From Lingula anatina (Eukaryota > Animalia > Brachiopoda): a stretch of 64,000 nucleotides of DNA. The stretch lies in NCBI GenBank assembly GCA_051362555.1, contig CM120644.1:12298567-12362566 (forward strand), read 5' to 3'. Below, piece by piece: positions 2,410 through 60,399 of the stretch. Made by a program: the position numbers and the translations under genes. The notes under the pieces were generated by a model, which made no database searches, was not told the origin of the DNA, and saw only the letters and a program-made list of their open reading frames with translations. The first letter of the stretch is position 1. Each line of letters opens with the position of its first letter.

Positions 2410-3578
2410 TTATACAAATATTTCAATAAAATCATGACTACTGTGAATGGCCTTTTTTGGTTCTACATTTTTCAATTTCTGTTTTACGTATAACCCTTTC
2501 TGATGAAGTCTAGTGTCACTGTGAGCATGTTTTTTGGGCAAGTGATAATCTAAATGTTCCACAGAAGGGAGACGCCATTTTGGATAGCGCTTTCGCCTCT
2601 CCAATGCGGCTGAATGGTAGGACTGCTTTTCTTGGCTTGTTTCCGCCAACATTGTTTCACTTTTGGCAATTTGGCGCACACGTGGCACCAGCTGCTGTAT
2701 TGTGTCAGAACGTGGTGAAGACTGTAGAGCATCATAGGTATTTGATCTAGGTCGGTGACAATGGTGCCCTTTGGGTCGGCGGCCTTTACTGCTAGTGCTA
2801 CTGGCACCACCATGTGCTGCTATTACAGGGAACTTTCTGTCAGATGAAGCCTCAGCACTTGATGGTGAAGTTAGAGTAAGTTGTTGTTGCTTCCCACTTG
2901 AAGACTTCTGTGTCACCCTCTGCCCTGGTCCTGTATCTTTTGGTTCTGACATTTGAACATCAGAAAAGTCTGTGAAAGCTAAACCCATATCGTGCACCTT
3001 TCCTTTTTCATCTGTCACTTGGAGCTCAATGCTGTCAATACTGTGACAAGAGTCAGCCTTATATTTGTCACCATTTTCACTAACAAATGGAATTTCAGTG
3101 TCAAAGTCAGTGACATTATCATCAGGGGTGACGAAAAATCTCACCATCCTGTCCCTGGGACCAGACTGATAGTCCAATTCTGTATCAGAACCCTGGTTGC
3201 TATGGCAGCTGTTGCCATTAGCAACAGTTAAGTTATTTCTGTTGTTTTCTATAGCAGCACTAATGTCTCTTTGGGTGGATTGGATTTTTTGTTTTTGGCA
3301 GTAATTTTGATCAAACACTGGACTTGACCGTCCACTACCTGCATCAACTAGGACTTTTATTACCTTGTTGTTTTTATAAATGGCTGACCCTCGCTTTTGA
3401 TAAATGGGGGCAGCACGTGTGCCTAGACCACCGAGGGAAGACGAAGAGCTGACACGTTTCTTTTGTGGTTGGTCATTGGCAGCAATGCCAAAACGTTCCC
3501 TCATTGACGTAGCAACCATTAGACTTAGGCGACGTAAAGCACTGGTGTTTGCGCTGGATTCTTCTGTCCTCAATGAAT
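2410..3578 (-). CDS. Terminal coding exon (~389 aa, disordered, Ser/Arg/Lys-rich, ends ...HDFIEIFV*); probable longest C-terminal tail of the GPCR
   Basis: Long ORF in AT-rich DNA with acceptor tatatttccAG|AT-TCA-TTG (exon starts 3578). Phase 1 matches the GPCR TM7-exon donor (G|GTAAGG at 19581), giving ...EEML-D-SLRTEESS. TAA at 2410-2412; AATAAA (minus) at 2182-2187. Confidence 0.8.
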
Positions 3579-4102
3579 CTGGAAATATACACAAAGTCAA
3601 GTAAGTTTGGGCTAATTATAGCAGTGAACATTTTTCTTCATCAGACAGATTTGAATTTTTTTCGCAAGATTTCCTTCTACCCGTAAAATAACCAATTTCT
3701 TCTGTGTGAAAAGTCGACAATAATAATAATAATAATCAAATCAAATCCCTACACTTGCTAAAGGCTGGTTAAATAGATCAATGAGAAAATCTATTTGTCC
3801 TATTATACTATTTACAATTAGTTGGGACATAACTATTCTAGATTTAAATAAAATTTCATAAATTTTAAAATTTAAACTGGATAGACATTTTCAGATGTAA
3901 AACTGCAAACTTAAAATGTTTTAAAAAGTTGATATAAAATGTTATAATGAAGGTATAATCATAGTCAAAACCACATCTGTAATCAAAACACTAACTCCAC
4001 AACTGGCATCAAGTCATATCTGGACAAAAATATCTAACTGTAATATTATATGACAAAAGGAGAAGTCTTAGAGTTTCTTAAATTCACCACATCATCAATG
4101 AG

Positions 4103-4555
4103 GCTATAAACACAACCAAAGTTGATCTGCAGACTAGGGGACCATTCCCACAGATATTTCGATCTATCTCCCTGGGGAGTCTCACAAAATTGCTATCAAA
4201 CTACTCGGATTTAACATCTGTCACCCCTAGTAAAACTGTAAGGGGTCTATTATCTTTACCCCTAGCTGATTCGGTAGGCGTGGCAGACATTTAAACCTCT
4301 AGAGCTGATAGCAATTTAGCATGAACCCCCAGAGAGTTAGGTCGATCCAGATGGATTGATCTAAGTATGGGAACCCAGTCTAATAGATCCACAGATCAAA
4401 TATGGCAGAACCACTTGAAAGCATATGGCATATTCCCCATGTGGAATCTATTCAGTGTCTATTAGGGGATTAATTCGCAAGATTCCAAGTGGGTCGGCCA
4501 TATTTGATCTGCACCGACCTGTTGGTCCACGGATCGACTTGTTCTGAGTGCGTCC
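4103..4555. mobile_element. Degenerate foldback MITE interrupted by an inserted MITE at 4138-4380
   Basis: Inverted arms CAGATCAAATATGGCAGAACCACTTGAAA / TTCCAAGTGGGTCGGCCATATTTGATCTG and AAGTTGATCTG / CGGATCGACTT. The left end is approximate. Confidence 0.5.
4138..4380. mobile_element. PIF/Harbinger (Tourist)-like foldback MITE, diverged copy
   Basis: Ends GGGACCATTCCCA...TGGGAACCCAGTC, flanked by TAG/TAA. It is an imperfect palindrome over its whole length and is homologous to 4559-4784. Confidence 0.7.
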
Positions 4556-4558
4556 TTA

Positions 4559-4784
4559 GACCCCATTTCCATAGATTTTTAGATCAATCTATCCCCGTGG
4601 GGAGTCTCACTAGATTACTGTCAGCTTGGCCGGATTAAGCATCTGTCCCGCCTACTAAAAGCTGTAAGGGGGTAATTAACTATGGTGCCCGCTCGGCTGA
4701 CTGCAATTTAGCGTGAACCCCCAGGGAGTTAGGTCGATCTAAATCTTAATCTTTAGATCGATCTAAATCTCTGGGAAAGCACCC
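4559..4784 (+). mobile_element. PIF/Harbinger (Tourist)-like MITE, subfamily A
   Basis: TTA target duplication (4556-4558, 4785-4787); ends GACCCCATTTCC...GGGAAAGCACCC; closely similar copies at 26527-26756 and, inverted, at 36547-36753. Confidence 0.85.
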
Positions 4785-5071
4785 TTAGAGACTATATTTT
4801 GACAGACCTGACAAATCCTTACAGAAAGACATAAATTTTATCAAAACACTTCAGGCATAATACCAACTAGTACTAAAAACAACCACTGCATGAAATCATC
4901 TATTAATGAGTTTTATCAAATCAGTTCAAAACTTACATATAATCATTTTCTCATCCCCTTAAATATCAATTAGTACTAAAGGTTAGTATGACTTCATGAC
5001 ATCTAATCAAACATGCATTATTGGTATGTGTACAAACAAACAACTTTGTGTTTTTTAAAGACAAATTTGTA

Positions 5072-5332
5072 TTGAGGATATGATATTGTCCATCCTTCCT
5101 AGTACATGCTTTCCCTGACAGGTATCTGCATGATTATGTGAAGCTTAACACCGGCTGCAAAAGTACCAGTTAAGTGTATTCCCTTTTTTGCCAAATTTAC
5201 CAGTATTCTGTTATCCTTTCCCCAGCAATGACATAGGGAAATGCAGCAGAACAAAACATTAAAAAACTTCCCACAGAGATCGGTAAGGGCTAACATGTAT
5301 CTGGAGAACGGCTAACAATACATATCCTCAAA
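5072..5332. repeat. Degenerate inverted repeat, possibly an old foldback element
   Basis: TTGAGGATATGATATTGT at the left pairs with ACAATACATATCCTCAA at the right; weaker complementarity continues inward. Confidence 0.45.
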
Positions 5333-6229
5333 ATGATAAACTAAAAGCATGTACACTGTACAATGGGCTGTGTTTCTATTTTAAAATATTTCTTGTCAGC
5401 TTATTGATTTATTTGATACCATCAGAACACCCTTTGGATTGTTTTGAAATTTGATGAAAAAAACTGTGATATTTAAAATTTATAAAAACAAATGGCATCA
5501 TTACTACACCAATCCAGTGAACTTAAAAAGTAGACCCCAATCTGCCAATTTCGTGACTATGTTTGCAAGATAGACGGAAATGTTACCCCCCCCCCCCTTT
5601 TTACACCAATTGCTCAGAACAGTGTGTTAAAACTGGAACTCTTTTGATTTGTAACTTCTTGCCATAGGACAAGAATTTTACCAACCCCAAATGAACCACA
5701 TTACACCCTGAATTTCAGAGCCTAATGGAACCCTGCCTCAGTAATAGCCTATAGCTAGGTAAGTTACCCTTAGTGCTCTGAATTTCAGGGTGTCAAAAGT
5801 GCAGGTTGTAATGAACATGACAATATTAAGTTGAACCACAGCATGTAAGTAATTAACAACAATAACAATTGTTCACAACTTTTTTGTGAAGTGTATTGAA
5901 CTACATGCACTACTGTAGTTGGACATGTTCTTGGAATGTGAAAAAGGTGCCACTGTTATCTATCACTTTGGCATTAATCTGACTTCAAAAATCAATTTTG
6001 CCCAAGCTACATGGTGCTACATGTTGTTAAAACATGATAGAGGGAGTCCACATTAAAACAAGGCAGCAAAGCTGTCAAATGTACAGACAAAAAGCAGACA
6101 ATAACAATGCACAAAACAGGCTACTGTCAATTCTGATGCAAAAGTACATTATGCTTAACTGCAAATTCAACATCAAATTTTAATTATGCTCAACAGGTAA
6201 TACCAATGTAAGTGAAATGTGTAACAAGC

Positions 6230-7290
6230 GTAAGGCTTCAGGCCCATGGGAGTTTAAGTTCACACTTTGAAAATGCCAGAATGAGAAAAATGAAAATTTC
6301 ACATAAAACTGCTTAAATTCAATAATAAATGATAACCCATTTGAGCTGGCTTTCTAATTTGAACTGCATGCCAATCCTACAAATCATACTTGTAAGTTGA
6401 AAATAATAATAAGTAACATAGTTTTCTTTTCATAATGTTTGTTGTAGCAGTGCAAAAAGATTTTTGTCAATTTTGATGTAACATTACAAAATAAATTACA
6501 GAATAATTATCACCAATTTTTGATTATTGACTATAAAGAGCATGGACATGTAGAAAATTTGATTACCATTTGGCTTCATGTCCATGGGAGCTTCGAGTCC
6601 CACAATGAATATGCCAACATGATAAAAATGAATAATTCACTAAAATGTATAACTTCCAGAAAAAGAAGCCAATTAGACTGCTTTTCCAACTCAGGCTGCA
6701 TTTTAGTCCTTTGTTTCTTTTTTGAAAGTTTGACAATCATAAGTAACACGGTTTTCCCATAATGGTCATCATGGCAGCAGCACCAAAATTGTGTTTTCTT
6801 CTATTTTAATGCAATATTACATAATGCTTAACAGCATAATGACCATCAGTTTTTAATAATAAAAGATCCGTATCGTGGATTTTCAGAAAATGTGACTAGC
6901 ATGGGTCTTCAAGCCCGTGGAGGTTCTAAGTCACACCTTGAAAATGCCAATATGTGAAAAATTAAATTTTCACAAAAAACTGATTAACTGCCAAAAAAAT
7001 TTACCAAATAGTCTGCATTTCCCACTGAAGCTTTATTTAAGTCCCATGTTTCTTCCTGTAAGTTTGAGCACTGTAAGTGACATGGTTTTCCTTAAATGGT
7101 CATCATGGGAGCAGTGTCCAAAATAGGGGTGTCTTCAAATTTTGATGCACTATTACATAATGTTTAACAGGATAATTACCATCAATTTTTAATAATAAAA
7201 TATTAGTATCATGGATATTCAGAAAATGTTCCTAGCAAAGGTCTTCAGGCCAAAGGAACTTCAAAGTTACACCTTGAAAATGCCAGACAA
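6230..7290. repeat. Degenerate ~335-bp tandem array (~3.2 units)
   Basis: The motif CTTCA..CC....G....T..AGT.ACAC.TTGAAAATGCCA recurs at ~6236, 6574, 6907 and 7243. AATGGTCATCATGG...TATTACATAATG..TAACAG blocks occur at ~6761 and ~7096. Confidence 0.7.
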
Positions 7291-7685
7291 GACAGCACTG
7301 TCTTGAAATGTTTTTTTTTCCATTTTTAACAATTTTTTAACATATAACAAAATAAACAATTTACTGCCACTTATATATGATCAACTAAGAAAATTGATGA
7401 GATGGGAAAAATATCAATAGAACAGTGTTTATTGTCCAATTTCCTCCATTCTGAGTTTCTGAACATAGTGAATGAATGAATCTGACAAACTGCAATGATA
7501 TGAGTTTATTTCCATTTTTGAAACTCTATTATACAATACATGATAACAAGTTTACCATCATTTTTACATAATCAACTAACAATGTTGTAAAGATGCAGGA
7601 AATGTCAAACAAACACTTTTATGAATCTTATTAGTTAAATAATGAGACTGTTAACATGCCTAAGAATTGAATCTGAGGAAATGTT

Positions 7686-8249
7686 TAAAAACAGCATAAC
7701 TTATAAAATAATGGCCCGATTATGCTGATTTTCGAACTTGACCTGCATTTTAGTAAGATTAATTACTCCTGTGAGTTTCATGACAACAGGTCTATCGGTT
7801 TTCCTTGAAATGTGTTAACAGTGTTGCACATATGCTAAAAAGTGAAAAAAACAGCATAACTACTAAAATAGTGGCCCGATCATGCTGATTTTCGAACTTG
7901 ATCTGCGTTTTAGTAAGATTAATTACTCCTGTGAGTTTCATGACAACAGGCCTATCGGTTTTCCTTGAAATGTGTTAACAGTGTTGCATATATGCTAAAA
8001 AGTGAAAACACAGCATAAATACTACAATAATTGCCCAAACATGCTGATTTTCGAACTTGACCTGCGTTTTATGAATATTCATCAGCTCTGTAAATATAAA
8101 GCCAAAAGGTAAAACTGTCTTCCACTTATCGTGTTAACGATGAAAGTGCACGGCGACGGCGACGGCGACATCGACGGCGACAGGGACGGCGACGACAGAC
8201 GCAGGTGATGGCAATATGTACAGACACATCTGTGTCTGTACATAAAAAA
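7686..8249 (+). mobile_element. Second HINE/Helentron-like element 3' module: 160-bp array, GACGGC microsatellite and terminal hairpin (the element may start near 6057 and include the 335-bp array)
   Basis: TTCGAACTTG at 7731, 7891 and 8050; GACGGC tract at 8149-8200; hairpin TATGTACAGACAC/GTGTCTGTACATA at 8215-8244 followed by an A-run. Same family as 1-646. Confidence 0.8.
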
Positions 8250-8349
8250 TTACTGTGCTGACAAGTTTGTTTGGTGCAATGTAAACAACAAATCACCACA
8301 AAAAAGTGGGAAAATCATCAACTGCATATCACGCATAAATGGGAAAAAA

Positions 8350-8620
8350 GTGAGAGTGACACAAGGTACCATGACAACATGACGACTTAGCAACTTATTC
8401 AAATGACATAAAACATGACAATCAGTGACAGTTTTATGCTTCCATGACAGCTTGCATGACAAGACAACATAGGGTACCATGACAAATACAGTGTAGCTCA
8501 GAGTGCATGAGTTAATTAATAAACTGACCCTGGGCATAACATTTAGTGACTATTTCATGCTTTCAACAAAAACTCCCATGACAATATATGACAATATAGG
8601 GTACCATGACACATTTAACT
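8350..8620. repeat. Degenerate ~110-125 bp repeats rich in CATGAC(A) motifs
   Basis: GGTACCATGACA at ~8365, 8472 and 8600, with many interspersed CATGACA words. Confidence 0.55.
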
Positions 8621-10839
8621 GATACTAGGCATGGAATTTGGTAACAATTTCATGCTTAAACATGTAACAACACTGACACAAGATTGCATGCAAGCATCCA
8701 TATGATATAGCTTACATTTGATACCTTGGTCAGAGATAAGTAGCAATAAAAGAGTAATTAAGAATGAGGCTGGGAAAATGGAAATGGGAAATATTGGTCA
8801 TAGCAGATTACTTTTAAGCACATCAAATTGTTTCTTCTTTTTATCTAAAATATTTTTTAAAAATATTATAATAAATAAAAATCTAAATATATTTTCTGGA
8901 CAGAACACTGAAAGAAGGACCTCATGCCAGATAAAAAATAACAGGATTTATATATCTATTTTGGTTGTAGGTACATGTACATGCAGCAAATAATGCACAT
9001 CCATTAGAAAATTAGTCAAAATTCCCAAAATAGAAGAAGGCAAATTACCAGTATGTATTTCATCTTTCTATCCTGTTTTTGAAGTGATCAGGATTACTTT
9101 GAGCACAGTCTAGAGAGAAAATAGAAGGGCTAAAATAAAATTAATGAGAGACAGAAAGAGAGAAATACAAAGATGAAAAATATCAACAAATAGACAAAAG
9201 AGTAAACATACAATTTCACACAAGACAGGCAAAGACAGTTGGTCCAGTGTCCTACTTAAAATGCACACTAGAGTCAAGTATATAACTGATATCTTTACAA
9301 TGTTCACACAAATATGTTGTTCACAACCTTAAAGAAGATACAGAGATATGAAAGCCCCATAGTCAGGATATATGGTTTTAACAAAAAAAAAAGTTCCAGT
9401 TTGTTAGCATGCTTGATTGTGCTGGCCCTCACTTTCTGCCACTATATCCTACTAGTAGAGTGAATATTGCCAGAGATTGGGGAAATTACCCTTTTCAGGG
9501 CCACAGTTGATTTTTTACTAGTTATTCACAGATACTTCTCTAGCTGGTCCGTGCACATTTCGGTACTGTGAGAGCCGTCCAACAGGAATTTTTGCACACA
9601 ACAGACATCATCCCTCAACTGGCCTATGGTGAATAGTAAGGGGGGGGGGGTGCTTAAAGAAGGGCCTGTTCAGAACCAGCTGATCCACTGAATAGCTAGA
9701 TGATAGAGCTTGCATCAAACATGACGTACACTTGTTATTCCCTAACGATAATGTAATGGATTTCTGCCTCGCAAGCCACCCTCCCTGCAAGGGCAGAGTT
9801 ATTAAATATCTGCAAGCATTCAAGAGGGTTACGCCATATTTGATCATATTTGAGGGGACTAGTTAGTCCATGAATCAAATGGTTCTGAAAAGGCTCTAGG
9901 ACACCATATACATACTTTCTTGTGTCACCAAGCAGTTAAATCAGGAATGTAGAAATAAAGTTATACTGTTATAGTTCTTTAAATCAAGTGAGTGGTGACA
10001 GTATATTTCTTTACCCTGTCTGGGCAGTAACTTCGGTGCAAAGGGTATATTTTTGAACATGAAAGTTGTGCAAGAGTTGTGTATAATTATCATGCCATAA
10101 CTGGTTATACTAGAATCTATGTATAAACTGTACTCTTAGTACTGGTACTAGTACAAGTATGTGCCATCTATTGCAATCAAACTTTCTGAAATGCATCCAT
10201 GGTTAATATACAAGATTTAAAAAAAAGCTATACTTTGCATGTATCTGGAACTTATGAGACTCCTGCATATTTCATCTTATCCTATCATACAAACAGCTAC
10301 ATATTCAAACACATACGAATTCAAAAATCACTCCATAAGAAAGAAATTATAAATAAAACAACAGAGGCTGATCCAGAATTATATTAGTCAAAGAGATGTT
10401 CTGTTCTCCCTCCCACTGTCTGATATTTTTTTTGAAAAAGATAATTATCCATTGTTGAGGCATTTTGTGGTAATACCAGTTCAACAGGTACAGTAATGAC
10501 TTCATCTTTTCAATGGGGACAAATTACCAATTTTTCAGAAAATGATTTTGGAATAATAGAAAAATATATGATTTCTATATAGCATTGGTGGTGCTTTACT
10601 GTAAAGAATGAAACCGCTTTTCGATTTTGGTCCTACATGACATACCACTGAATCAACATGCATGGTCTAGTTTGAAGAATTAATGACATAAGAAATTACA
10701 GTATCTGTCATTTTCACAATTTGTTGCCCACTGAATAGATTGAGTCATCGCCTAATTTTTCTTCTATCTGACCTGAACCTGGTTCTGTTTTCAAGAATTG
10801 GAGGAGGGCACCCTGAGTGTCAGAGGTTTGGAAACTCAC

Positions 10840-10872
10840 CAAGCAAAGGCATGCACCTGTGGTATCCAGTTA
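10840..10872 (-). CDS. Candidate 33-nt symmetric (phase 1-1) micro-exon of the GPCR tail (VTGYHRCMPLL)
   Basis: A long (CT)n pyrimidine tract precedes the ctatttctAG acceptor; the donor is a strong TTG|GTGAGT; the frame is open and preserved. Confidence 0.3.
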
Positions 10873-11173
10873 CTAGAAATAGCAAGTGCATGGCTATGAG
10901 AGAGAGAGAGAATGAGAGAGAGAGAGAGAGGAGAGGCTAGTTTCCAATGACCTCTAATACTCAGGGTTCTGGTAGGAAGGGTGTTGGCTGGGGCCCCTTG
11001 GATTTGCCTTTTTTCCAGCAAACTTGATTACAGTTTTAAAAAGTGACAAAGTAAACAATTATGTCCTATTCAGATTTTGGTGCATTTAGATCTGTTACTG
11101 CATGTGAAGATGACATGTAAAGTGATGATAAAATATGAACCAAAACAAAAGCAACAGCAGTGCAAAAAAGTAC

Positions 11174-11209
11174 CTGCAAAGGACTCAACATCCGCATCTG
11201 AGCAGCATC
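11174..11209 (-). CDS. Candidate 36-nt symmetric (phase 1-1) micro-exon of the GPCR tail (GCCSDADVESFA)
   Basis: Acceptor ttttcttctAG, donor GCAG|GTACTT; GC-richer than its flanks and frame-preserving. Confidence 0.35.
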
Positions 11210-12753
11210 CTAGAAGAAAATATCAGAAATTGTTTGAAAAATAAGACCACCTCTATATAAAATCAGGAGTGGATACCATTTTAGACCATGAAACATCAGC
11301 ATCTTTACAGCAGGTATCCTCACCCAGGAAATGTTTTCTGTAAAAACTCATTTCATCCTTTAAAACATATTAATAAACAAAGGGCATTCAAAATACTTTT
11401 TGTACTCTATTTTTGTAATAATTTTCACTTAGACATGTAATATTTTAGAAGTTTGTTTTAGTTTGGTAAAGTATATTGTGCGATTGCAAAAAACAAAGAA
11501 AAATTAAAATAATTCTTTTATAATTCTGAATAATAAGAGATAAATGTTAAAGAAAAAAGTGCAGCAAACAAAAAATCAAGTTATTAACAAAATAAGTCTT
11601 AGACCACATCTCTAGAATCCCCTCTTAGTATCAATAACACAAAAAAGCACCAGTGTACTACCAATCACCGTGTTCAAATGTATTTTAATTTTTGCATTAT
11701 GTAATATAAATATATGATCTTGAAAAAGTTATTTCTGATTTTAATTTTCAGAATTTTCAGATTATTGATATGAGGCATATGCTGTATTCAGATCCCTTTT
11801 TACATATTAGGGTGTTTTAATACCAATGTTTTACATTACAAAGTAATTACATTTTTCAAAATAGCAGCCGAATATTACAGTAATAACTTAAACCCAAACA
11901 GCAGTCTTAATTTTCATACGCAATAAAAATAAAATTGTTAAGTACTTAAAAAAAAGGAAGAAAGAAAAATGTTATGGCAATTGCTGAAGGCTCTCAGAAA
12001 AAAAATTAAAAAATCTGAGATGTGACCATCAGTTCATAAGTTTGAAATATTTCAATCTTTGTTAATTTAGTGGAAATGGATCTGAACACAGCTTGTAATA
12101 CTTACAATGTAAAAACTCTTGGTCAGTTATGTATTAGTTTCAAATCAAACTTCAGTAGCAAAGTTAATGCTATTAAGGATTAAAGCAGGTAATATAACAG
12201 ATAAGATTATAAAAAGGGGAGATATGAAGTAAATGAAAAGGCAAATAAAATTATAAAGAAAAGATGTTGATTAATAAACAATTTTTAAACTCATTAAATT
12301 TATGAAAGCTAAGGTAACATTTGTACACATGCATTAATGAAATAAATGTATGTGACTTAAATTTTTACTTAAACAATCAAGGAGAATATTATAATTTCAA
12401 TGTGAAATTAAAGTAATATTCAAAATTATCAAGAAAATAAAAATAAAAAATATTAACCAAATAAAGGGGAAAATGAAAAACAAAATCGAAAAATCAAAAA
12501 TAAATATACTAGTATATGTATACATACGAATTGTATTCATTTTTATTTAAATTACACTTTCACATTTACCAGTACCTATCTATGTACCAGTAAATATCAT
12601 CTTTAAGCCTAATCATCCTCATCACAAATCTCAATAAACTAGTTATATGGTACATAAGCCACCTGCAATTGTCAAAAATTAGTACAAAAGATCAAACACT
12701 GAAGCCCTAGCAACACTGCACCCATTACCATGACAACTGTTACTACGCCAGCA

Positions 12754-12926
12754 CTAACCAAGGCAACAATCTGCCAGAGGGCTGCAGATCCTATTACCAG
12801 ATGGCACTCTGTTATGCAAGACAAACCCTTTTTCATTTTCCCCACTAGCTGGCTGACTGTCTCTAACAGGATAGAGACTGCTCCTTGCGTCATCTTCTCT
12901 GCCCATTTTTAGGTCAACGTCATAAT
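12754..12926 (-). CDS. Candidate alternative terminal exon of the GPCR (57 aa: DYDVDLKMGREDDARSS...PLADCCLG*)
   Basis: Acceptor tacttgcacgtAG|AT-TAT-GAC in phase 1; hydrophilic protein-like composition in a GC-richer island; TAG at 12754-12756; AATAAA (minus) at 12542-12547. Confidence 0.5.
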
Positions 12927-13731
12927 CTACGTGCAAGTACATAGTAAGAGTGAAACACATAATCCTAAAATTGATTACTTTTCTTTAATACCATACTTAC
13001 ATGTACATCACTGCCATATATATATCATGTTCAATAAAACATTCCTCTTTTTTAAATCTTAAAAAACAAACAATGCAAACACTTAACTGAAATCCTACTC
13101 ACTCACATAAGCATACATCTTATCACTAACCAATATGGGTTCCTACTCTCATAAAATTCAATACATAACTAAGCATTTAGACTAAATTAGTTTACCATCC
13201 GAAGCGCATGCATCTAAAAGACCTGCAGTGACATTCAGACTTGACAACCATATACATGTACACTGTTTAACTTGCTCTTCTTACATTCATAAGTTGTTTT
13301 CTAAGAGTTTTACAGTTTTGGCTAATTCTAAAGACAGGCAAACTTAATAACATCAAATACAACATTTATTCAACAACTTAAAGAAAAATATACATGTCCA
13401 TGTAATAGTAATTGTGCAAACAATGGATATACTAGTTGATAATTATTTTTTTGTATTTATTGTTGGTAATGAGCAAGGCCTTTTTCTGTAATACTGACAA
13501 AAATGAATGAGCTAAATCAATATCACAAGTACATGTGCCATATTTACAATGACTTGGGGCATTTGTGCATCACATTTTTTTATAATGTAAATTTTAAAAC
13601 AAACTGAAATTGTTTAAATTTCAATATATGCAGTTTCTGAGAGCACCAGTATTTTCTCTCCTTCTAGTGCAAATGTAAATGTTTATGAATATACTGAAGC
13701 AAACTTCAAAAAATATTTTCAGATCTTTGAG

Positions 13732-14510
13732 TTATATTATATCATTGTCATCATCATCATCATTATCATCATCATCATCGTCATCATCTATCCAACGAAA
13801 ATTTCTGTCTAGCAAATTTGGTAGGTCTGGCATTATGGCACTCTGATTTATAGCATCTTCTTCATGATTACATTTTTCATCATTCCCCATTTCCCCTTTA
13901 CCTTCTTCTGTCTCCCCAACATCTCTGAGAAGAGGGGCACATGTATCACTTACTTTGAGCCTTTCGTCTTGTATGGAGTCATCAAGACAGAATGTCACTC
14001 TTAATTTGCTGTCACTTTTTACAGATTTGACATTATCTCCAGCAGAATTTCCCAGGATTCCAAGGACAGAAGGCTCGCTGGCCCCTATATGCTGGTTGCT
14101 AGGTTTACTGCCTTGTTTTAACTTGAAGCATGACAATGAGCTATCTGTGCTTTTGGGCAGAGTAGGGAGAGAGGCGTTTTTCTCACAGAAATCAAATTTA
14201 AGAAACGCAGGTTGGTTGAGCTGTGTTGCACCTTTAATATTATTTCTAATTGCCAACAATGGTAGTTCACCATAACTGGCTTGTTTGACTTTAGGAAAGC
14301 TTTTGACAGAGTTAGCAAAACTTCCTGTTCGACTTCTTGAAGGGACAAGCGTATCGGAGGCAGAATTTCTACGTCTTGACTGGATGCCATTTCTTAATGC
14401 ATGATTTGGTTGGGTTGCAAGCAATCTTCTGACCTGTGGCGAGGCCTGAGTGAGCGATGTCACAGATCGTGTTGTGCTGAGAGTGTGAAACACAGAATGT
14501 GATGATCCAC
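13732..14510 (-). CDS. Alternative terminal coding exon of the GPCR (~259 aa, Ser/Thr/basic start, poly-Asp end ...DDDDDNDII*)
   Basis: Long ORF with acceptor cctatcacAG|GT-GGA-TCA (exon starts 14510) in phase 1; RRRNS and RSRTGS kinase-type motifs; TAA at 13732-13734; AATAAA (minus) at 13456 and 13365. Confidence 0.72.
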
Positions 14511-16261
14511 CTGTGATAGGCCAATTGTGAGCAGGAAAAGCAAACAGATAATCTTTACTGTAGCAAAGGAAAATACTTTGATTGGATTCCTTTTCAAAAA
14601 AATCACTTGGGACCAAAAGTTAGTTGGTCTCAACTTAAAACCCAAAATTTAGCTCTACTCCACAGAATATATCTCCAGTAGTCTACTAAAATAAAGTCCC
14701 AAAAGAAGCTTTTTTTTTTTTTTTATAAAACAGGCACATTTCAGAAAAACAAATTTTGATTTATCATGGCTCAAAAAAGACCTATTTTTTTTTCTTGAAG
14801 TTAAAAGTTCCCTTTGATCTCAAGTCCTTTTTGAAACAGGTCCATGGGAGGTTTATATAATGGATACATTTCCAGTTCACAGTCAATAATTACAGTTTGA
14901 AGCATCATTGCTGCTTCCATCTGGCAGAAAAATAATTATGTTCAAGATCAAAATCATTAGAAACTAGTAGCTTTTTGACTAAGATGTGACAATATCTAAA
15001 ACTTTTGTTTTATAAGTATTCCAAAATGCAAGTCTAAAATTCTCATGATCTGTGATGTTAAAGGCTATTGATATATATGTATTCAATATTTCCGTTAAAT
15101 ATATCATACATTAATCATAACTACTTGCTACCAGTAGAATTTAAAAATAGAATAAAATGAAGACTTCCCAATTACTTCAGTTCATAATTGCCAATTTATC
15201 TGTAAATATCACTTGAATCATGACAAAAAATTACATCAACAATGAAAAACTTCTGGCTGACAGACACTTGCAGTTGAGGGATATATACAAAACTCTTTCA
15301 AAAGTACATTGTACAAATATCTACAAACAGGTATAAAATGGTGTAACCAACAATTAGTCATAAAAACATCACTCATCACCACGCGATTATGTTCCAGGTT
15401 TCAAAAATTGATAAATTACTAAAATCTACACACACACACACAATCAATTTAATTAGAAAACAGTTCTGATGATGAGCAATGTTGCAGTGGAACACCAACT
15501 TCTACTGTCAGCAAAATATTCCAAAATACAAAACAACATGAGGGATATTTAAAATATAAATAAGTGTGGTACCAAAAATTGAACACCTTTTTTGACTCAT
15601 AGTTATTGTACTCCCTGCCATATGGGACAAACATTTTGTTGAATTAAGAGAGACAGGGTTTATTTTCCTGAAAATTTCAACACTTTTACCCTTGATCACC
15701 AGGGTGCACCAAGTTAAAAGCCACTCACAATTTACAATCAAATCTAGAAAAAATTTTAGTTTGCATTTTTAATCCTTGAGTCACTCTAATAACAAAGGTG
15801 GAAACTGTATGATGAACTGTGCTCATGATGATAAAAATGGAAGTTGAAAAACTTCAAAATTAAAAAAAAAAAAAAAAAAAAAGACTTTTCTGAAAGTTTT
15901 AGATAAGATATATTTTGGGATTAACAAATTTAGTGAAATTTTCAGGTAAATAATTTTTTTATAATAAAAATCTAAAAACTCACTGTGTGACACAGTTTAA
16001 ACAAGTTTACATATATAATAATACAATACAATAAGATGACCAACATCACAGTTTGCAAAATATCACAGCCGTTTGTTTACATACATCATGTTGTAAACAA
16101 CACCTGACAACATTGGTATACTGACAGCCAAAATACTTGAAAATACAAAAGCACATAGAGATGACAGACCTGTGAACAATAACTGAAAATCCACCCAGCA
16201 CTATTTCAATTAAAACAATTTTTAGACTTATTGCAGGAAGAATTTTATTCTTGGGACCTAA

Positions 16262-16440
16262 CCCCTCAGCCATAATGGGAGTTAAAAAGAACTGCCCCTT
16301 TCGCAAATGTCCACTCTGAATCAAAAACTATATATGAGTTTTATGCCATTTTGTAAGTCAGGTCAAATGACAGGTGAAAAGGTCCACATTCTAAGAAAAA
16401 GAACCCCACCCCTTTGAAATTGCTGGCTAAGTAAGGGCCT
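16262..16440. mobile_element. Degenerate ~170-220 bp MITE family remnant (related copies ~17375-17575, 21142-21308, 21385-21600, 49652-49853, 51877-52055)
   Basis: Shared layout: G-tract, AAAGAACTGCCCCTTT, GTCCAC, CCCCTTTGAAATTGCTGGCTA. The best-preserved ends are CAGGCATTAGCC...GGCTATGGGGCTG at 49652-49853. Confidence 0.55.
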
Positions 16441-17905
16441 TCATGAGACTTAAATTAATGTCCAACAAGAAGACCTATTCTCGGGACAAAATGATAGTCT
16501 AGTGGTCAGGTTGAAAAACAGGATTGTGGGTAAATTGATGGAAAACAAATGTTACCCAAAGTGACCTTAATGGTTGATTGCAATCAAGCTGGGATTAGTC
16601 TTGAAATAGTTTTAATGAAAACAGTGCTGGCTGTGGCCTGATGCTTACAACAGTAAATCACAGAGGAGGACACAGTTATCATGAGCATCTCTTCATGTTA
16701 CTGACACATACAATACTGTAGTTATAAAAACATCTAAAAAAGGGGTTGGGGAATAAATTCACAATATTGAAATATAAAAGTTTTGTACATACAATTTGCT
16801 TTCCTAAATGTCTCCCTTGCTAAAAATTGAACACAGTAAGCATAAAGGTTTAAAATATAAACAGCTACTTAAATATTCAATATGCAGACTCATTTTAAAT
16901 TCAACTTTAGTCAAGTATATATCAAACATTAATGACATCTCTGTCACATCCTGACACAATCCTACATCTCAGCAATCACAATCATACCAGAGCACACTCC
17001 ACATTGTGCAAATCACAACAAACACATTTAGTTTAAGTCTCTGGAACAAAAATAGACAATGTGATAAAATCATGGGGAAAAAGAGGGAGGGGGGGGGGGG
17101 CTGATGGATAAGGAAAGCCTTTTCTTTAAACTGGGTCTGCCCTCCCAAAAAGAACAGTTTTTAAATAACCTATAAGCATGAGCTCACTAGCTTTACCTAT
17201 AAAGGGTTGTGGTTTTATGCAGGAATTAGCAATTGAAATTTTTTCTTCAAAATATAACTTGGTTTCATTATTGAAAAAATGTGTTACATGTATATCTCTT
17301 GCATTTCTGGTATTATCATTTAGATATCAGAAATGAATGAATATATTTAGTTCATAAACTTAGCACCAACACCAACCTGTAGGCTGGTGGGGGGGGGGGG
17401 GGGGGGGGTTAAATAGAACTGCTCTTTTGGTTAGGAAACAGATCTGCTCTCACTCAAAAATGTACCTACATATACCTCCTTTGCCAAAATTGTCAATTTG
17501 GGCCAACTAAGCTGGTAAAAAAGACACCCCTTTATTTAAAGAACCCCCTGCCCCTTGAAACTGCTGGTTACACTCTTCCAACATCTCAATTATTCTTCAA
17601 CCTTTTGTAGGCTTCTTTTCCTGCCAAGCTGAGGGCAATACTCAGAAACTCTCACCACATATTCATATATATATGTACACTCTGCGTGAGTGAACTCTAC
17701 AAGTACACTAAAATCCCATTTCCTGACTATATAGTACACCCTGTTGTATCTGGTCTCACTGACACCAATGGAAACAGCATCAATTATGCAGTGTCTCTTA
17801 ATTCAAGGGCAATTGATTCAAATAATTAACACCTTCACAAATGCTTCAGGGAAGATCAAACACCCACTCCACCTACTAATCAGGTGCCATTTTAAAGAAA
17901 ACAGA

Positions 17906-18024
17906 CTAATCACAATTACACGATTCAATGACAGAAAAATGCCAATTAGCCAACATTTCACAGTAATATACATTTATCAGTGATCTACGTCGCGAGGCCA
18001 GCAATTTCAACTGGGGTTGTTTCT
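17906..18024 (-). CDS. Weak candidate alternative terminal exon (EKQPQLKLLASRRRSLINVYYC...SCNCD*)
   Basis: Acceptor ttcacatttcAG|AG-AAA-CAA in phase 1; CpG-rich TCGCGACGT codons are unusual for intron DNA here; RRRS motif as in the longer tails. Confidence 0.3.
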
Positions 18025-19580
18025 CTGAAATGTGAATCTTTTTACTCCCTAAGTTGACCCAGTTGACAAAGTAACAGTCAAATGGCAGAGAACTTCGATC
18101 AAATTTTTATACATGTGAGGATGTTTATACATTCTAATTTGGGATTTACCTGTATATATTTCATCACTAAAAGCTCAGATGATTTGCAAGATAATGATAG
18201 GACAGAGACAGCGAGAGAGGGAGAGGTTCAATCAAATTCTCTGAAGAGGTCCATTAATTTCATACCACTAGGGACACATTGATATTAATGGCACATATTA
18301 CATCAGCCACTTCTCACTGATCTACTGGGACATACATAATTTATATTCAATTACCCAAATAACATATTTTGATGCACAGGAAACACTTAAGCTTTATTCC
18401 CAGGTGCCCTTTCTGATCCCATTTCCCACCAAAGCAAGTGTGCAGTGTTCATTCCATTAGCTTGCTTTACAGAAGAAAATTTGTAATTTCCCCGCAGAGT
18501 CCACATGTATCATGGTACCGGAACTGAATTAAACCCTGTGGTTTAATTAAGCTAGGGTGGGGGTTGAACAGAAGGAGATAACGGAGAGACTATTTTAGTT
18601 GAGGGGGAGGGGGCGGGGGAGGGGGTCCTGTGAGATGGAACTTGATCAGCCAAGAAAAGAATGACTGAATCTACATCTTGTAAGTTAGGTGATAAATAAA
18701 TAAATAAATAAACACACAGATTCAAACACACATACTTCATCCAGATCACAATCTCAACAATCTACATCATAACATTGGAATTACATACATTTTGTTTTAC
18801 AGGAAATAAACAAACATCACTTCACCACACTCTTATCTTCCTTTCACTAGAACCACATTCCTCTATTGAATGAATTGATAATTTGTTGAACAGCACTGAA
18901 TTGATATCATCTATCATAATGCTTTTCACTGCTGGTTTGTGTTAGTTATATCATACAACTGTTATCTTACAATAAAACTTATATTTGAAATTATAGAATC
19001 ATGTATGATGGTGTAAATTTAATTATTATCAATAACACTATCTCTAAAAGTTAATCAAAATAATCAAGAAACATAAGATATATAAAGCTGAAAAAATAAA
19101 AATGCAACTGATTTCATAATAAGGAAAAGTTAGGAATGCTTTCAGATAAAGTTGTGTGCAATCTGTAAGTATGTTAAGTGCCTTTTGTTAAGAAAGGGAC
19201 TCGACAAGTCCAGTTTTCATTTTGAACAAAGTAAATATTTTTGATAAAGACGCCTGCAGTTTAAAATATACAATTCATGTCTAAAAAGTAAAACTTTTTT
19301 CCAAATATTATAAATAAAATTTTTCTTTTTTTATTTTCTGTTTTAATGTTACTAGCATGTTATTAGTTGTCCATGCACTGGGGTCATAATAAACATATCA
19401 AGACTAAGTTATGCACCTTATTACGTATCAGAACCATCAAAAAGACAGCAGATTTTGCTATTGTTCCTTTTATAAAGACCAGTCAATACATGCTAAGTAA
19501 CATAAATATCTTAAACAATTTTCTAGTGTTCATTAGGAATTGGAAAACGTTTTAAAATTCATTGAAAAAATATTCCTTAC

Positions 19581-19710
19581 CTAACATTTCCTCTGTTACA
19601 TATCCCTGTCCACGGCATATGATTTCTTTGAAACCCTCGCGGAAAGAAGGACTACGCAGAGCATAGATAATTGGATTACATGCACTATTCATGTAGCCGA
19701 AGAGATAAGC
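19581..19710 (-). CDS. GPCR coding exon 2: TM7 and helix 8 (AYLFGYMNSACNPIIYALRSPSFREGFKEIICRGQGYVTEEML)
   Basis: NPxxY motif and F(R/K)xxF helix-8 pattern. The acceptor catcttcAG at 19711 (phase 0) matches the exon-1 donor; the donor TTAG|GTAAGG at 19581/19580 is phase 1. Confidence 0.95.
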
Positions 19711-22323
19711 CTGAAGATGTAATGGATATACAGTGAGCACACTTTTTTTTTTATTAAAACATACATATATGACATATATATATTATGGTTAGAGTTTGGT
19801 CTGTTACAAGATACTTAATGGTAAGAGAAAATATCTATGATATGTGAGATACAATAAATATGTAGTATATAAAGTTTGTAGTGAGACAGTTAAATACAAA
19901 GCATAATTATGTGATGCTATGTAATAAGATATATCCATTTTATGTTTGGAAAAAATATATAATACACATAAACTGAATCTTTGATATATATTGCAGCAAA
20001 AAATTATACAGCATAAAAATAAAATACAAAGTATATACTAGTATGTGTGAGGAATGATTAACTTTAAGTTGGAAAGTTCTGTCTCCAGTAAACATAATAA
20101 AAAAACTTTTCCTATATTTAAAACTAATTATTTGACATACGTCCAATAAGCAAAATTCCTCAATTCCATTTATCTTATCTTGGTTTGTTCAAAGCTGTCT
20201 CTGAGAAAGACACTGATGACTTCACTCTTAATCAGATTTTGTCATCAATACACTGACAGAGCTGATCTTCTAAAGGACGGAAATGCAGTTAGAGGGTTCT
20301 CAAACCACAGGAGAAATTTCAAACGGCATATTGGGTTCCCCATTTGTCTGTCAGTAGATAACGAGCAGATTACTGCAGTGGCAATGGGTTTACCATGTCT
20401 TTCCCAACCACTGTCAGTCTCTATTACGTCTGGACTTCGAAAGTACCTCTACTGAATTACAGATAGTGGAAATATAATGGCCTGTTAGGCAGACAAGGAG
20501 GAACATTTTTTAAATCACGATTTGTTTTTTTTTTATCTATTACACAATCCTAATAATGGAATCTTCTTTTGGTAATAAATTTTATACTAATTTTCAAGAT
20601 TTAAAATTCATGGTGCACATGCAGTTCATGATGCTTGAAAATAATGATGAAACTGAGAATTAACCAAGATGTAAATAATTTCAAATGCTTCAAATGTTTT
20701 ATAATAACTTAACTGTATTAGCATTTTTATCTAAGGCCAATTGATCCGATTAAATTTCCTTTTATTTCTTTTCATAATATTGTTTGCACTCACAAAATAA
20801 ATAAATTAGCAACTCAAATGCTATCTTTTATCATTTCAAAAAATTTCACTGTAAGAATGGCATACCTCAATTACACAATTTCCATTGATTACTTTTTAAA
20901 AATATTATTTAAATATCATTATTTCATTATTTGAAATACATGATTTTCATGTATTTTTTCCGGTTTTCTTAAAACAGCCTAAATATGAGAGATGGAGTAA
21001 AGGCAATAGCATGGATATTGATAAAAAAGAAAATCAAGTTACACTGACCCATATATTTGCCAGGTTATGCAAGAAGCAGCTAAATTATATCAAGGCAGTC
21101 TTCTTGGTTTCGACAGGGTTGCCAATACTGTGTGTTTGGTATCATGCCTGTAGCCAGAAGGGATCGGAGGGTTGGAACAAACTGCTCTTTTTGCCAGGAA
21201 AGAGTTCACTCTGGGTAAAAATTGATCTAAGTACACTACAGTTTCATGGTAAGAGGTCTACATGGTAAAAGTGCATCCCTCCTTTGAAATCGCTGACTGT
21301 TAGCATAGGCATCATTTCCACTTACACCAATTTTCTGGTTATCTATTCCTCCTTTGTTTTTGTTAATTCATGATAGACCAACAGACATACAGGAAGGGTA
21401 GGAGGGGATGGTGTGTGTGTGGGGAGGGGGGATTAAATTTAAAGAACTGCCCTTTTGGCCAGAAAATATCTGCTCTGAATCAAAACTTGATCAAGAATCA
21501 TATACCATTTCTTTCAACTGGATCACTTAAGGGGAGAAAAATTAAAGGTCTACTTTTCCAGAACCTCCCTGTCAAATTGCTGGCTACAGATATGGACATG
21601 AGTTCCACATATTTTGGAAACAACAGTATTGGCATAACTGAGTTTATCATATCCTAATAATTTTATTTTTCACCTTTGTGATGATAAAGAAAATGTTTTA
21701 CCGCCCGAGGGTTTCGCCAGACATAAATTATAGGGTTACAGCAACTGTGCAGGTACCCAAGCCAGTACACCTGCAATTACATTTGGATGTAAAAAAACAC
21801 CATTAATGTACCAGTTGTAATTAATTATTTGACAATTTTGGGCAAAAAAAAATTTTTTCTGGTGGGAAGGGGGTAAGGGTATCAGTTGAACAGACTCCAT
21901 TGCCAATTTGTGACATGTGGTGTTGCTCGAGTCCCAGAAATTGCACTTCATGCACTTTTCTTTTTAAATATTCATAGACATGGTTTTCTGCTTGTACAAA
22001 GCATTAACTGACAAAATTCCGAAAAATATTTTTTCTTGACTAAAATAGATTAAATTTTTTATTCTTTTTTTTTTTTTTTTTGTAAATCCACAGCATATGT
22101 ACTACTTGTAAAGCTAGTAGTTTAAAGAACCTATTAATGTGAATATATCTAATGCCCAATAAAGGATTTTCTTTAATTTGACCAAAAAACAAAAAAAATC
22201 TTTATATTTAAAATCTCCTCCCCTCCTTAAATATTTGATTTGGTTATTTTGTGACCACATATACTACGAAAGTATTAGCAATATGTTGTAAAAAAAGTTT
22301 GGTTTTGCATGCTGTCTACTTAC

Positions 22324-23226
22324 CAGAGGGTTGGCCCAGTGCGGGAGACTGGTCTTGTCCTCAATAATGGAAGCATACGTGGAGTAGACGATGTAAGGAA
22401 ACCAGCATATGAAGAACACCACCAAGACAATGAACAGCGTCACAGTTATACGTTTCTGCTGGGCCAGAACCGAATCTCTCTCTTGGTTAGTATGTGCTTG
22501 GAGTCGCAATGTGTAGCCTTTGATTTCCACAAACATCCTCCGGTAGCAAAATATCATCACGACAAACGGCACGAGCCAGCACGTGCTTGTCGTGAATATT
22601 GTGTGTGCATACTGTTGGGTTGTGTGCGGAAAATCTGGGCCACACTGGGTTGTGGCATTTTTATAAACCACGTGATTCAGTCCTGTTACTGTTAACATGG
22701 CGGTGAGGAACCCCCAAAACCAGGCGCCGCCAATCATGAGCAGGATTTTACGGTATGTTAACACTCGACTAAATGGTCGTGTAATTGTTACATATTTGTG
22801 GACGCTGATATACATTAGGTTATGAATTGAAGTCACCAGGAAAAAAGCCATTGTAAATCCATTAAAAACACAAAATTCATCCTCAAATATCCATGTCCCA
22901 CGTATAATAGTGGCTAATGAGAATGGCATATCCAATATGGCAACACACAAATCTGCTGTGGCCAAACTTCCCAGAAACATGTTAGTCCTTGTTCGCATAC
23001 CTTTATGACGGCCTATCACAGATAAAACCATTAAATTACCTACAATGGCACATAACATAAATATTGACAAAAACGTTGCAAAGATGACCTTCATGGGTAA
23101 ATCCCAATGGTCACCATGGTGACCATCAAGATCGTTGTGGAACGTCACATTCAGTGTTCTGTTTGGAGATGTCAAGGTAAGGGTAAAGTGGTCCATTGTG
23201 GTCAGATCCATGCCTGAAGGGGTCAT
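22324..23226 (-). CDS. Orphan class A (rhodopsin-like) GPCR, coding exon 1: N-terminus to TM6/ECL3 (301 aa)
   Basis: GN in TM1, TNMFLGSLATADL in TM2, ECL1 W and C3.25, ISVHKY at the DRY position, W4.50, P5.50 and Y5.58, CWFPY in TM6; N-glycosylation sequons NRT/NVT. The first in-frame ATG is at 23226 (in-frame TAA at 23305-23307; the ORF track start at 23283 is TTG). Donor CTG|GTAAGT at 22324/22323. Confidence 0.95.
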
Positions 23227-38010: not shown

Positions 38011-39792
38011 AAGTTATTGGTCCCAGAGATTCTGTGCTAAAAGTAGGCCAATGACATGCATCGTTGCATCTTGGATTATGAATACAGCACCAGACACAAG
38101 TAAATTGATTTGGAAATCAAGTAAAAATTTTCATGACAAAAATGGCCTTCAATGAATCTTCCAGGATACTATAGTAATTTGATCTGACATCAGCATTTAT
38201 AGCAGGTTTATAAAGCCCTCTCTCTCTCTTCAAGCTTGTAACTGATTAGGACCTTTAACGACTGAATAATGGACAATCTCACACATCAAAGTCTGTCAAT
38301 TTCTACTAATTCATTAAGGAAGGTCTGAAAGACATATTCCCTGCTTCTATTGATTGAATCGTCAATTAATTATGCAACAGCTCAATTAAGGAGTAATATG
38401 GGGCTTACGTAATACAGAAACGTACACACTACCAGAAATAGTCTTAGGATTGATGCTGCAGATAAAATTTTCGACAAAAATAACAGCAATGACATATGAT
38501 TAGTCTGTACTTTCAATCAACTTGCAAGTTTACATTAACACCTAATCTAAAAGGAGAAAGCTGAGAAAAAATTGGCTTACCATACCCTACCCTGTAGACT
38601 GTCTTAATTTGTAAAAATTGCATTTTGTTTACAAAAATACCCTTTGTCGTCAGGGACCTTTTCTCATTAAATACACACAAAAATATCTTAAAACTAGTGT
38701 TAAAGCACTTACTCATGAAATGCAAATTTTGGAAAATATAATGATTGAAACTCTTATATAATAGGAGACACTGAATGATGAAGGGTTTCTGTTGCCTGCA
38801 ATGTCAGGTAATCAATAGACCAGATTTGGCATGAAATAAAATGTTTCCAGTCAGACCTATGTATATCCCAGTTCAATTCATGTCAGACGGCTACCTGATT
38901 ATAATTAGGTCCATTAAATGCAGAAGTTAATTACTTTGAATTATTGAAAAATAGGACTTGTCTTATTAAATGAAACACTCTCTTAGAATAATAATTACTT
39001 GTTTATATTCATATCATGTCTTAAAATAGCATTTGGTATATTTAGGAGTAAATCAGAGTACTTTTTGTAAATTAAAAGTCAGTGCTGAATAAGGCTTGAC
39101 CAAATTAATGCACATTCTAAATTGCACTCAAATTTCCGGAAATTAACAAATTATAAACATTTAAAGTTCCGCTAATGTCTGTGTTCCTGCTTTCTGCTAC
39201 CATGACAAAATCAAATAAATCATCTGTCTCCTTGCAAAAAAATGGACAGGCTCTTGTGAGCTCAGGATATGGAAAATTCAGAAAAGAATTTCTCAGAGGA
39301 AATATAATTCTGTAACTAAATTGTGATCAATAACATTTAACTGGATACTCCCCCTAAGCAAACAGCTGTACCCTCAATTTACTTCATTCCCAAAGGCATG
39401 ACTCCGGGTCTAGAGACAGCCAATCCCATATTGATAAATAAAAGCTCTATAATTTTTCAGCTGACATCTAACTTAAAGAGAAATTAAAAGTCTGATGGCA
39501 AGTTTTCGATCAACCTTGTGCTGCCAGAGCTTCGTTTATGAAATTTTCCTATAGGGTCCTATTGGACATCCTTAATCTCTCTGTAACCACGCCCAATTTT
39601 TCACAAAAATTTTATTCATCAGTTCAATCTGGAAAGTTGAGATTATACTTGTACATGATTGTACCAATGGTGAGACATGTACATGATTGCGTGTTTATCA
39701 TTATATAAATTATCTCATATAAAGTATCAAAATGCATTAATATGGAGGCACACTAGCTTGTGTGCATTTACCTTGTCATCAGTAACAAACTA

Positions 39793-58456: not shown

Positions 58457-59158
58457 ATAAAAAGATAGAGAAAGAGGGTGCAAGTTCTTTCTTTCCCCTG
58501 CAATTAATGTGTCACCAGTTAAAGTTCCATGGAGACACAACAGTGACGGTGTTTATTTGTATAAGTTCTTCTAAATGGCATTGGTCTCTTCACCTAAAAG
58601 CTACTAATGGACCTAACAAAACAGAACAAGCTTTTTGGGTAAAAGAGAACAAGCTTTTTGCTCATCAGTGATGAAAATTGATCTTCAGATGGGAGCTTCT
58701 GTCTAAGATGTTTCCCTTTTTGTCCTATCATGACACAGTGCAAGTTAATCATTTATAGGGACATGTCAAGTTTTCACTCTATTTTCATTGAAATAAGAGT
58801 TGTTTATTCCCTTAACTTGGATGAATCTACCCTTGTTGATTCATCAGTGATCTTCTGGTTGATTGAGTTAACCAGTGAACATTTTTTCTAGTTTAAGGCA
58901 TGGCATATGGATTATCCAATGTTACCAGCCCAAGATTTAAGTTTAAAGATATTTATTATCTTATGAAAGTCTAGCAGATTTATTTTGAAATCTCAATGTT
59001 TGGGTGTTGTATTTTCATGTCTGCATCCTCTATGTTGAGCTGCCCGCCTTTGTTGCTTGCATTTTCAGGGATTTTCATTGTTCACTTTCAATTCTATGCT
59101 TAAATTGTTGTATCTATATCTTTTCAGAAGCATCAAAGGGGTGCCTTTATAGTCCAAG

Positions 59159-59366
59159 ATGCCCCCTCCCCCGCCGCCCCCTCCGGGGCCCCCTCCCCCG
59201 CCAGGGCCCCCACCCCCGCCTTCAGGGGGACCAAAGTTGAAATTAGGCGGCGGAGGCGGTGGTGCTGGTGGTAGAGGCGCACTGCTTAGTTCTATACAGC
59301 AAGGCAAGAAACTGAAGAAGACTGTTACTAATGACAGGAGTGCTCCTGCTTTGGCTGATTCTAAAG
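59159..59366 (+). CDS. WIPF: WIP/verprolin-family (WIPF-like) actin regulator, first coding exon: polyproline + WH2 domain
   Basis: MPPPPPPPPGPPPPPGPPPPP...GRGALLSSIQQGKKLKKTVTNDRSAP is the canonical WIP/Vrp1 N-terminus. Acceptor ttttcAG at 59126-59127, good Kozak context AAGATG, donor AAAG|GTAGGA (phase 1). Confidence 0.9.
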
Positions 59367-60101: not shown

Positions 60102-60399
60102 TGAGTGACATTTTTATCCGTCAGTTAACATGAAGTAACAGAATACTTTTATAATTATGTAAAGACTTTTTTGTTTCAGGGTTTGAAATATTCCAGTGTA
60201 TGACTTGTTCTGTATGATATCAGAATTATGTTTTTAGAACTACACTTTAGTAGTTGATATGTTCTTTTGCGTGGGAGTTAAAACTAAGATAATATTCTGG
60301 CAAATCTCCCATCATTATGAACATCTTCTCTTGTCTGATTTTCACAGAATGTGATGTTTAAAAATGCATAATATTTCTATTTAATCCCTCTTCACATAG

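Follow-up and report, generated by a model that had tools for sequence, protein, structure and literature searches.

A pair of diverged homologous exons for the seventh transmembrane helix, and in-frame tail cassettes, in an orphan class A receptor gene of Lingula anatina

The 64,000-nucleotide stretch of genomic DNA studied here (hereafter the window, in whose numbering all positions are given) comes from the brachiopod Lingula anatina and carries on its minus strand a G-protein-coupled receptor (GPCR) gene that matches RefSeq LOC106170308. Coding exon 1 (22324..23226, on the minus strand like all the other exons of the gene) encodes the receptor from its N-terminus to extracellular loop 3 (ECL3), with the transmembrane helices TM1 to TM6; it ends at the phase-0 donor TCTG/gtaagt and is 97–98% identical to the RefSeq proteins of the locus. 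Two exons that encode TM7 and helix 8 follow, both entered in phase 0 and left in phase 1: exon A (21674..21770, 97 nt), a derived copy, and exon B (19581..19710, 130 nt), which resembles the orthologues. Further downstream lie T1 (13732..14510), an open frame of 258 codons with a phase-1 acceptor and a poly-Asp end, which is a candidate alternative last exon only; T2 (12759..12926), a symmetric 168-nt cassette (phase 1/1) that adds 56 residues; a symmetric micro-exon of 36 nt (11174..11209) whose 12 residues start with Cys-Cys; and T3 (2410..3578), the common last coding exon, with 388 codons and a product predicted to be disordered.

The micro-exon, exon A and the T2 end at 12759 were revealed by mapping onto the window the RefSeq models of LOC106170308, isoforms X1 to X4 on the main scaffold, which are automatic gene models. 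Isoform X1 (796 aa) joins exon 1, B, T2, the micro-exon and T3; X2 (740 aa) lacks T2; X3 (P0078, 729 aa) carries A, the micro-exon and T3; and X4 (728 aa) joins exon 1 and B directly to T3. T3 thus ends all four isoforms, with 380 of 388 residues identical; the first-pass annotation of this DNA had proposed it as one of three alternative ends. A fifth model (P0035, RefSeq XP_013400495, on a 126-kb scaffold) runs through exon 1, A and the micro-exon and then reads into the intron; this near-identical second gene copy is likely an allelic haplotig or a truncated model rather than a paralogue.

We then considered the identity of the receptor. Exon 1 matches Pfam 7tm_1 with an E-value of 8.8e-48, as expected of a class A (rhodopsin-like) GPCR, and both TM7 exons carry the NPxxY motif in the form NPIIY. 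AlphaFold2 (AF2) predicted seven long helices and a helix 8 for the exon A isoform and the exon B isoform alike, and the best Foldseek matches were class A receptors at 20–28% identity. Sequence and fold searches of the PDB gave generic class A matches only, from which no name could be taken, and a search of NCBIfam gave no match. Orthologue-like proteins at 37–58% identity were found in an annelid, molluscs, chelicerates, crustaceans, a priapulid and starfish. Our family set consists of 115 retrieved proteins, 103 of which carry the DRY and 3.32 sites (position numbers are our own counting), and in all 103 the DRY motif is replaced by HKY or HKF. An Asp at position 3.32 is the hallmark of aminergic receptors. 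Lingula has a Met there and none of the 103 proteins has an Asp (Met in 59, Asn in 20, Val in 11, Glu in 9, Thr in 3 and Ile in 1); we thus rejected the aminergic identity suggested by automatic names such as "alpha-1B adrenergic", "histamine H2" and "octopamine". Other members are automatically named adrenergic, melatonin, tachykinin or melanopsin receptors. With HKY or HKF for DRY and no Asp3.32 in 103 of 103 proteins, these names are uninformative, and the receptor is an orphan class A GPCR. It belongs to a widespread invertebrate orphan family with HKY/HKF in place of DRY, an invariant QQ before TM6 and many contradictory automatic names, in which no deorphanised member was identified among the proteins retrieved here.

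Searching the window with a family TM7/helix-8 profile returned exactly two places above threshold, exon B (E 2.2e-25) and exon A (E 4.6e-21). The first-pass annotation had described one receptor core with a single such exon; it had missed the copy at 21770-21674, and the 36-nt micro-exon as well. Between A and B, 13 of 32 residues and 42 of 97 bases (43%) are identical, and 8 of the 13 shared residues are encoded by different codons, which fits selection on the protein. Since each exon is phase 0 in and phase 1 out, including both or neither breaks the frame: all 10 exon combinations with exactly one of A and B stayed in frame, and all 10 with both or neither stopped prematurely, at residue 341 when A and B were joined and at residues 303-317 when both were left out. 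Exons A and B are thus adjacent and homologous, and exactly one of them can be included. The two copies differ most clearly in helix 8, where exon A has an Ala in place of the Phe that follows NPxxY in B and has no Cys; in TM7, its position ~7.45 is a His for Asn. Activation, sodium binding and palmitoylation of class A receptors, and their contacts with G protein and arrestin, are influenced by the helix-8 Phe after NPxxY, the Cys at the helix end and position ~7.45. When 24 distinct non-Lingula versions were compared with the two copies, all 24 scored higher against B (22 to 74) than against A (-19 to 10) over the helix-8 half; over the TM7 half, 6 were closer to A and 3 tied. We also examined 65 related loci from metagenome contigs. 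TM7 was included in 13 of them, 2 being intronless and 11 (8 distinct) having it on a separate exon with the same boundary. A second TM7 copy was found in none of these 11 intron-containing animal loci, over the complete preceding intron and 171-6189 nt downstream. With a single TM7 exon in all 11 loci, the duplication looks lineage-restricted in this sample, in which Lingula was the only named brachiopod.

Raw-read runs were chosen by species label (9 listed), and four of them were aligned to one stretch, 12510-13725, which gave 2 reads in run X1, 32 in run X4, 31 in run X7 and 2 in run X3 (these are run names, not RefSeq isoforms); groups of fewer than 3 reads with loose ends were not reported. 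In run X7, 6 of 31 reads leave T2 at the donor 12759 (CTTG/gttagt) and their loose letters match the micro-exon at 11179-11208 with 0 mismatches, whereas 4 of 31 enter T2 at 12926 with letters that exactly match the 3' end of exon B. T2 is thus spliced on both sides, to exon B upstream and to the micro-exon downstream. The junction from donor 19581 to acceptor 12926, predicted beforehand, is real; however, the TAG that was to make 12926-12754 a last exon sits within the used donor, and T2 is internal in isoform X1. Unspliced depth in run X7 is ~3-4x on either side of T2 and 7-8x on T2 itself, and no 3'-end pile downstream of T2 was reported among the reads on this stretch. With equal depth in both flanks and no end pile, nothing points to T2 as a last exon, a role it may nevertheless play occasionally, as a minor use. 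The two reads of run X3 diverge from the window sequence at the T2 acceptor (the diverging letters are not displayed). Two further loose-end groups were rejected as poly(A) or splice ends, being neither poly(A) nor matched by any exon; they seem to reflect allelic variation. At ~4% of T2 positions the run X7 reads depart from the window sequence, with 3 residues changed and no stop introduced, and they do so more often in the flanks, showing high polymorphism within the species label. Altogether, these data establish the exon structure, the frame rule and the splicing of B to T2 and of T2 to the micro-exon, and the variation seen consists of cassettes inserted in frame ahead of a common last exon rather than of a selection from three alternative ends.

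We consider it quite likely that the gene works with two diverged TM7/helix-8 exons, exactly one of which keeps the frame, two in-frame cassettes and one shared last exon, and that the second TM7 copy, whose use in transcripts is predicted, would likely alter G-protein coupling. Gene models support both the use of exon A and the skipping of cassettes. Several points weigh against this reading. The use of exon A is taken from the automated models X3 and XP_013400495, and the reads, on 12510-13725, support B; such automated models generally follow RNA-seq introns. The exon A donor, AAAG/gtgaaa, is weak, and an A-type helix 8 occurs in 0 of 24 distinct non-Lingula orthologue versions, so that cross-species conservation is lacking for this exon. 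AF2 speaks for exon A in that it gave A the same TM7 as B (293-315) and a shorter, less confident helix 8 (317-325, against 317-328 in B; predicted local distance difference test (pLDDT) scores over 301-330 of 94/89/70 for A and 93/88/84 for B), but its model of A is biased by an alignment whose other rows are B-like. As to the cassettes, the junction reads come from one of the four runs, none being reported in run X4 with its 32 reads and runs X1 and X3 having 2 reads each, and unspliced reads span the T2 donor at ~3x in runs X4 and X7.

Some of these points would also be expected if exon A were a dead or rarely spliced duplicate, a piece of annotation noise, and T1 a dormant frame, the gene then being an ordinary GPCR with two small cassettes. 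In favour of such a gene, what speaks for A is gene models, the family helix-8 Phe and Cys are missing from it, and neither the 24 orthologue versions nor the 11 related loci have an A-type exon. Yet, at a DNA identity to B of only 43%, exon A still has both of its splice sites, the same phase, an uninterrupted reading frame and NPIIY, its 32 residues are unchanged (32/32) in isoform X3 and in XP_013400495, that is, in three sequence versions with the window, and it occurs in two separate models. We regard a dead exon A as unlikely.

The T1 frame is longer than expected by chance. Its 258 codons exceed the longest frame in 300 of 300 simulations of an intron model (maximum 211) and in 5000 of 5000 simulations with its own composition (maximum 169), and the longest frame in the real introns of the gene has 99 codons. 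Its GC content is 41%, versus 33% for the introns, and its Ser/Thr content (18%) is like that of T3; it contains the motifs RRNS and RVTF, which can be read as kinase and protein phosphatase 1 (PP1) sites. The codon score of the frame (0.09) lies above the intron maximum (0.052 over 1308 windows), but mostly reflects composition because the other two sense frames also score 0.06 and 0.04. In line with a dormant frame, T1 was present in 0 of the 115 family proteins, and no homologue was found among proteins of 453-2000 aa (near-length fragments lying outside this search) or in Pfam. Reads on its 3' flank amount to one pair in run X1, 2-5x in runs X4 and X7 and none in run X3, similar to intron depth. 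In run X7 the coverage, of about two reads only, stops in the first bin beyond the AATAAA at 13370, and the next four bins are empty; such an end would fit a poly(A) site, although run X4 covers the intron beside the flank equally deeply. On balance we lean, by a little, towards T1 being a real minor alternative last exon. A duplicate of T3 it is not: the best BLASTP match between the two exons has an E-value of 6.8, in agreement with the earlier statement that the tails are mutually unrelated. A short motif looks like one of chelicerate tails, and a homology with these was also rejected, since none of 6 group tail profiles recovered T1 (T3 was missed too) and the best of 19 pairwise scores was equalled in 6 of 200 shuffles.

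T1 could instead be an internal cassette of 609 nt. The donor-like sequence GAAG/gtaaag is indeed present at 13902, as had been noted, and being in phase 1 it would make 14510-13902 a symmetric exon. However, the T1 frame stays open for 55 codons past 13902 up to its stop, the sole reported upstream partner of T2 is exon B (among groups of at least 3 reads), and reads lie on the T1 3' flank in three of four runs. This use of T1 seems to us improbable, a shade more so than a dead exon A.

T3 is likely the ancestral end of the receptor, to judge from a short local motif that it shares with mollusc tails: in 3 of 7 comparisons with lophotrochozoan tails the match was equalled in 0, 0 and 1 of 200 shuffles, the other four giving 11, 49, 108 and 159 of 200. 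The pLDDT of T3 is mostly below 50, and a search among 1.84 billion representatives found only T3 itself. A Pfam Peptidase_M15 match (E 0.033, below the cut-off) was taken as chance. Models from relatives vary at the same place. In four scallops, a chiton and Penaeus monodon, inserts of ~6-22 residues lie just past helix 8 ahead of a common end, and in two Asterias species the models end differently from the same junction (515, 379 and 346 aa in one, 514 and 379 aa in the other). The junction after helix 8 is thus a recurrent splicing hot spot in the family, where cassettes prevail and alternative last exons occur at times. Inside the last intron of the Lingula gene, the segment 4159-4744 holds two diverged copies ~400 nt apart with internal inverted repeats, possibly similar to a miniature inverted-repeat transposable element.

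The model from which the work set out, a fixed core with T1, T2 and T3 as three alternative last exons and a read-through tail in the manner of OPRM1, fares worst and is in our view very improbable. Its sequence features are sound: exon 1, exon B (19710-19581) with its phase-1 donor TTAG/gtaagg, and the AG acceptors at 14510, 12926 and 3578 with frames that fit phase 1 are all present, and the joined products have the lengths given (603, 401 and 733 aa; the read-through product, of 353 aa, ends in GKEYFFNEF). An AATAAA does follow each stop (at 271/362, 207 and 223 nt), yet this is a weak argument, since such a hexamer follows within 250 nt at 24% of the positions on the minus strand, and within 400 nt at 36%; the first hexamer 3' of T1 shows a different letter in 5 of 5 run X7 reads. 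The splicing of B to T2, the non-random T1 frame, the unspliced reads that continue beyond the T2 donor and the different tails of the starfish models from the same junction would also suit it. In contrast, the T2 stop lies within a donor used by 6 reads, unspliced depth is alike on the two sides of T2 (~3-4x, run X7), as in pre-mRNA, with no 3'-end pile reported, T3 ends all four RefSeq isoforms, and the core is not fixed since it has two TM7/helix-8 exons. What stands is that the gene encodes an invertebrate orphan GPCR and varies mainly at the phase-1 junction after helix 8; the events shown there are cassettes before one common last exon rather than a bank of last exons.

On the reading that we prefer, with two TM7/helix-8 exons and two cassettes, the ancestral TM7 exon would have been duplicated in tandem in the Lingula lineage; copy B would have retained the family helix 8, and copy A would have kept TM7 with NPIIY and rebuilt helix 8. 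TM1-6 of the receptor would stay constant, and its TM7/helix-8 surface, where the G protein, the GPCR kinase (GRK) and arrestin make contact, would differ. T2 and the micro-exon may tune spacing and likely palmitoylation; both exon A models join the micro-exon, which places its Cys-Cys just past the helix 8 of A and may restore lipid anchoring. T1 would probably serve as an alternative last exon in a minor share of transcripts, with a poly(A) site of its own. A fuller scheme is conceivable and we offer it tentatively: a combinatorial output face in which a TM7/helix-8 switch alters transducer coupling, two cassettes control spacing and palmitoylation, with the cysteines missing from A provided by the micro-exon, and either of two long unrelated tails, T1 or T3, ends the protein, so that a single TM1-6 body would carry up to 10 in-frame receptor forms.

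Known systems offer partial parallels. The insect gene for the ecdysis-triggering hormone receptor (ETHR) likewise encodes a class A GPCR and has a pair of homologous 3' exons that exclude each other, and its products ETHR-A and ETHR-B differ in ligand sensitivity and expression (PMC5572281); those exons are terminal and replace TM4 to the C-terminus, whereas the Lingula exons are internal, enforced by the frame, limited to TM7 and helix 8 (32 versus 43 residues) and followed by the same last exon. In Drosophila, the alternative 3' exons of OAMB-K3 and OAMB-AS alter the end of the receptor that faces the G protein, and the second messenger as well, which is Ca2+ in one case and Ca2+ and cAMP in the other (PMC2650798). 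The OAMB last exons cover intracellular loop 3 (ICL3) onward; in Lingula ICL3 and TM6 are shared and the aminergic Asp3.32 is missing. Full-length C-terminal variants of OPRM1 arise by splicing past helix 8, with different tails on one 7TM body (PMC8534031), and T2, the micro-exon and, if used, T1 follow this working model of tail splicing. In the OPRM1 variants the entire 7TM bundle is common and the ends vary; the Lingula forms, in contrast, have in-frame inserts before a shared end and a predicted exchange within the bundle. Neighbouring exons that are homologous and of which each transcript contains one are known as tandem exon duplication-derived substitutions, as in FGFR2 IIIb/c, GRIA1 and GNAO1 (PMC8373072), and are also treated generally elsewhere (PMC7617313). 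The events of the former catalogue are mostly ancient, whereas the Lingula duplication looks lineage-restricted. This human catalogue gave 0 matches for GPR, HTR, OPRM, PTGER, ADGR, GRM, CALCR, ADCYAP1R1 and 7tm (other GPCR names lying outside the search), and the controls FGFR2, GRIA1 and GNAO1 were found. The word "GPCR" occurs 0 times in the main texts of PMC7954323 and PMC9741552. No literature on this gene or on a TM7-only swap was found in listings and abstracts, a search that left outside most subscription papers and supplementary receptor lists such as that of PMC8557429.

The Lingula gene is a narrow version of known GPCR exon swapping, already latent in the RefSeq isoforms under misleading automatic names. 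Known GPCR exon swaps exchange much larger parts. Provided that exon A is functional, the gene amounts to a swap experiment made by nature, with the same TM1-6 and two versions of TM7/helix 8, and would allow a direct test of the role of NPxxY and helix 8 in G-protein and arrestin choice, and of whether a linked micro-exon can provide palmitoylation sites. Its value is limited by the orphan status of the receptor, by a duplication apparently confined to one lineage and by isoforms left unremarked in automatic annotation.

Elsewhere in the window, an exon on the opposite strand to the receptor (59153-59374, plus strand) encodes polyproline and a WH2 motif (Pfam WH2, E 2.8e-14), with proline-rich frames near 60372-60584 and 61952-62377; it likely opens a gene for an actin regulator of the WIP/verprolin type. 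Open frames of short tandem units on both strands at 39782-40244 and 42131-42570 are probably minisatellites, not genes. Satellite-like arrays occupy 2-545 and 7687-8071 (units of 160-161 nt), 979-2084 (373 nt) and 6220-7285 (~335 nt). The 160-nt array recurs 7.6 kb away with the same (ACGGCG)n flank, which suggests a dispersed repeat family.

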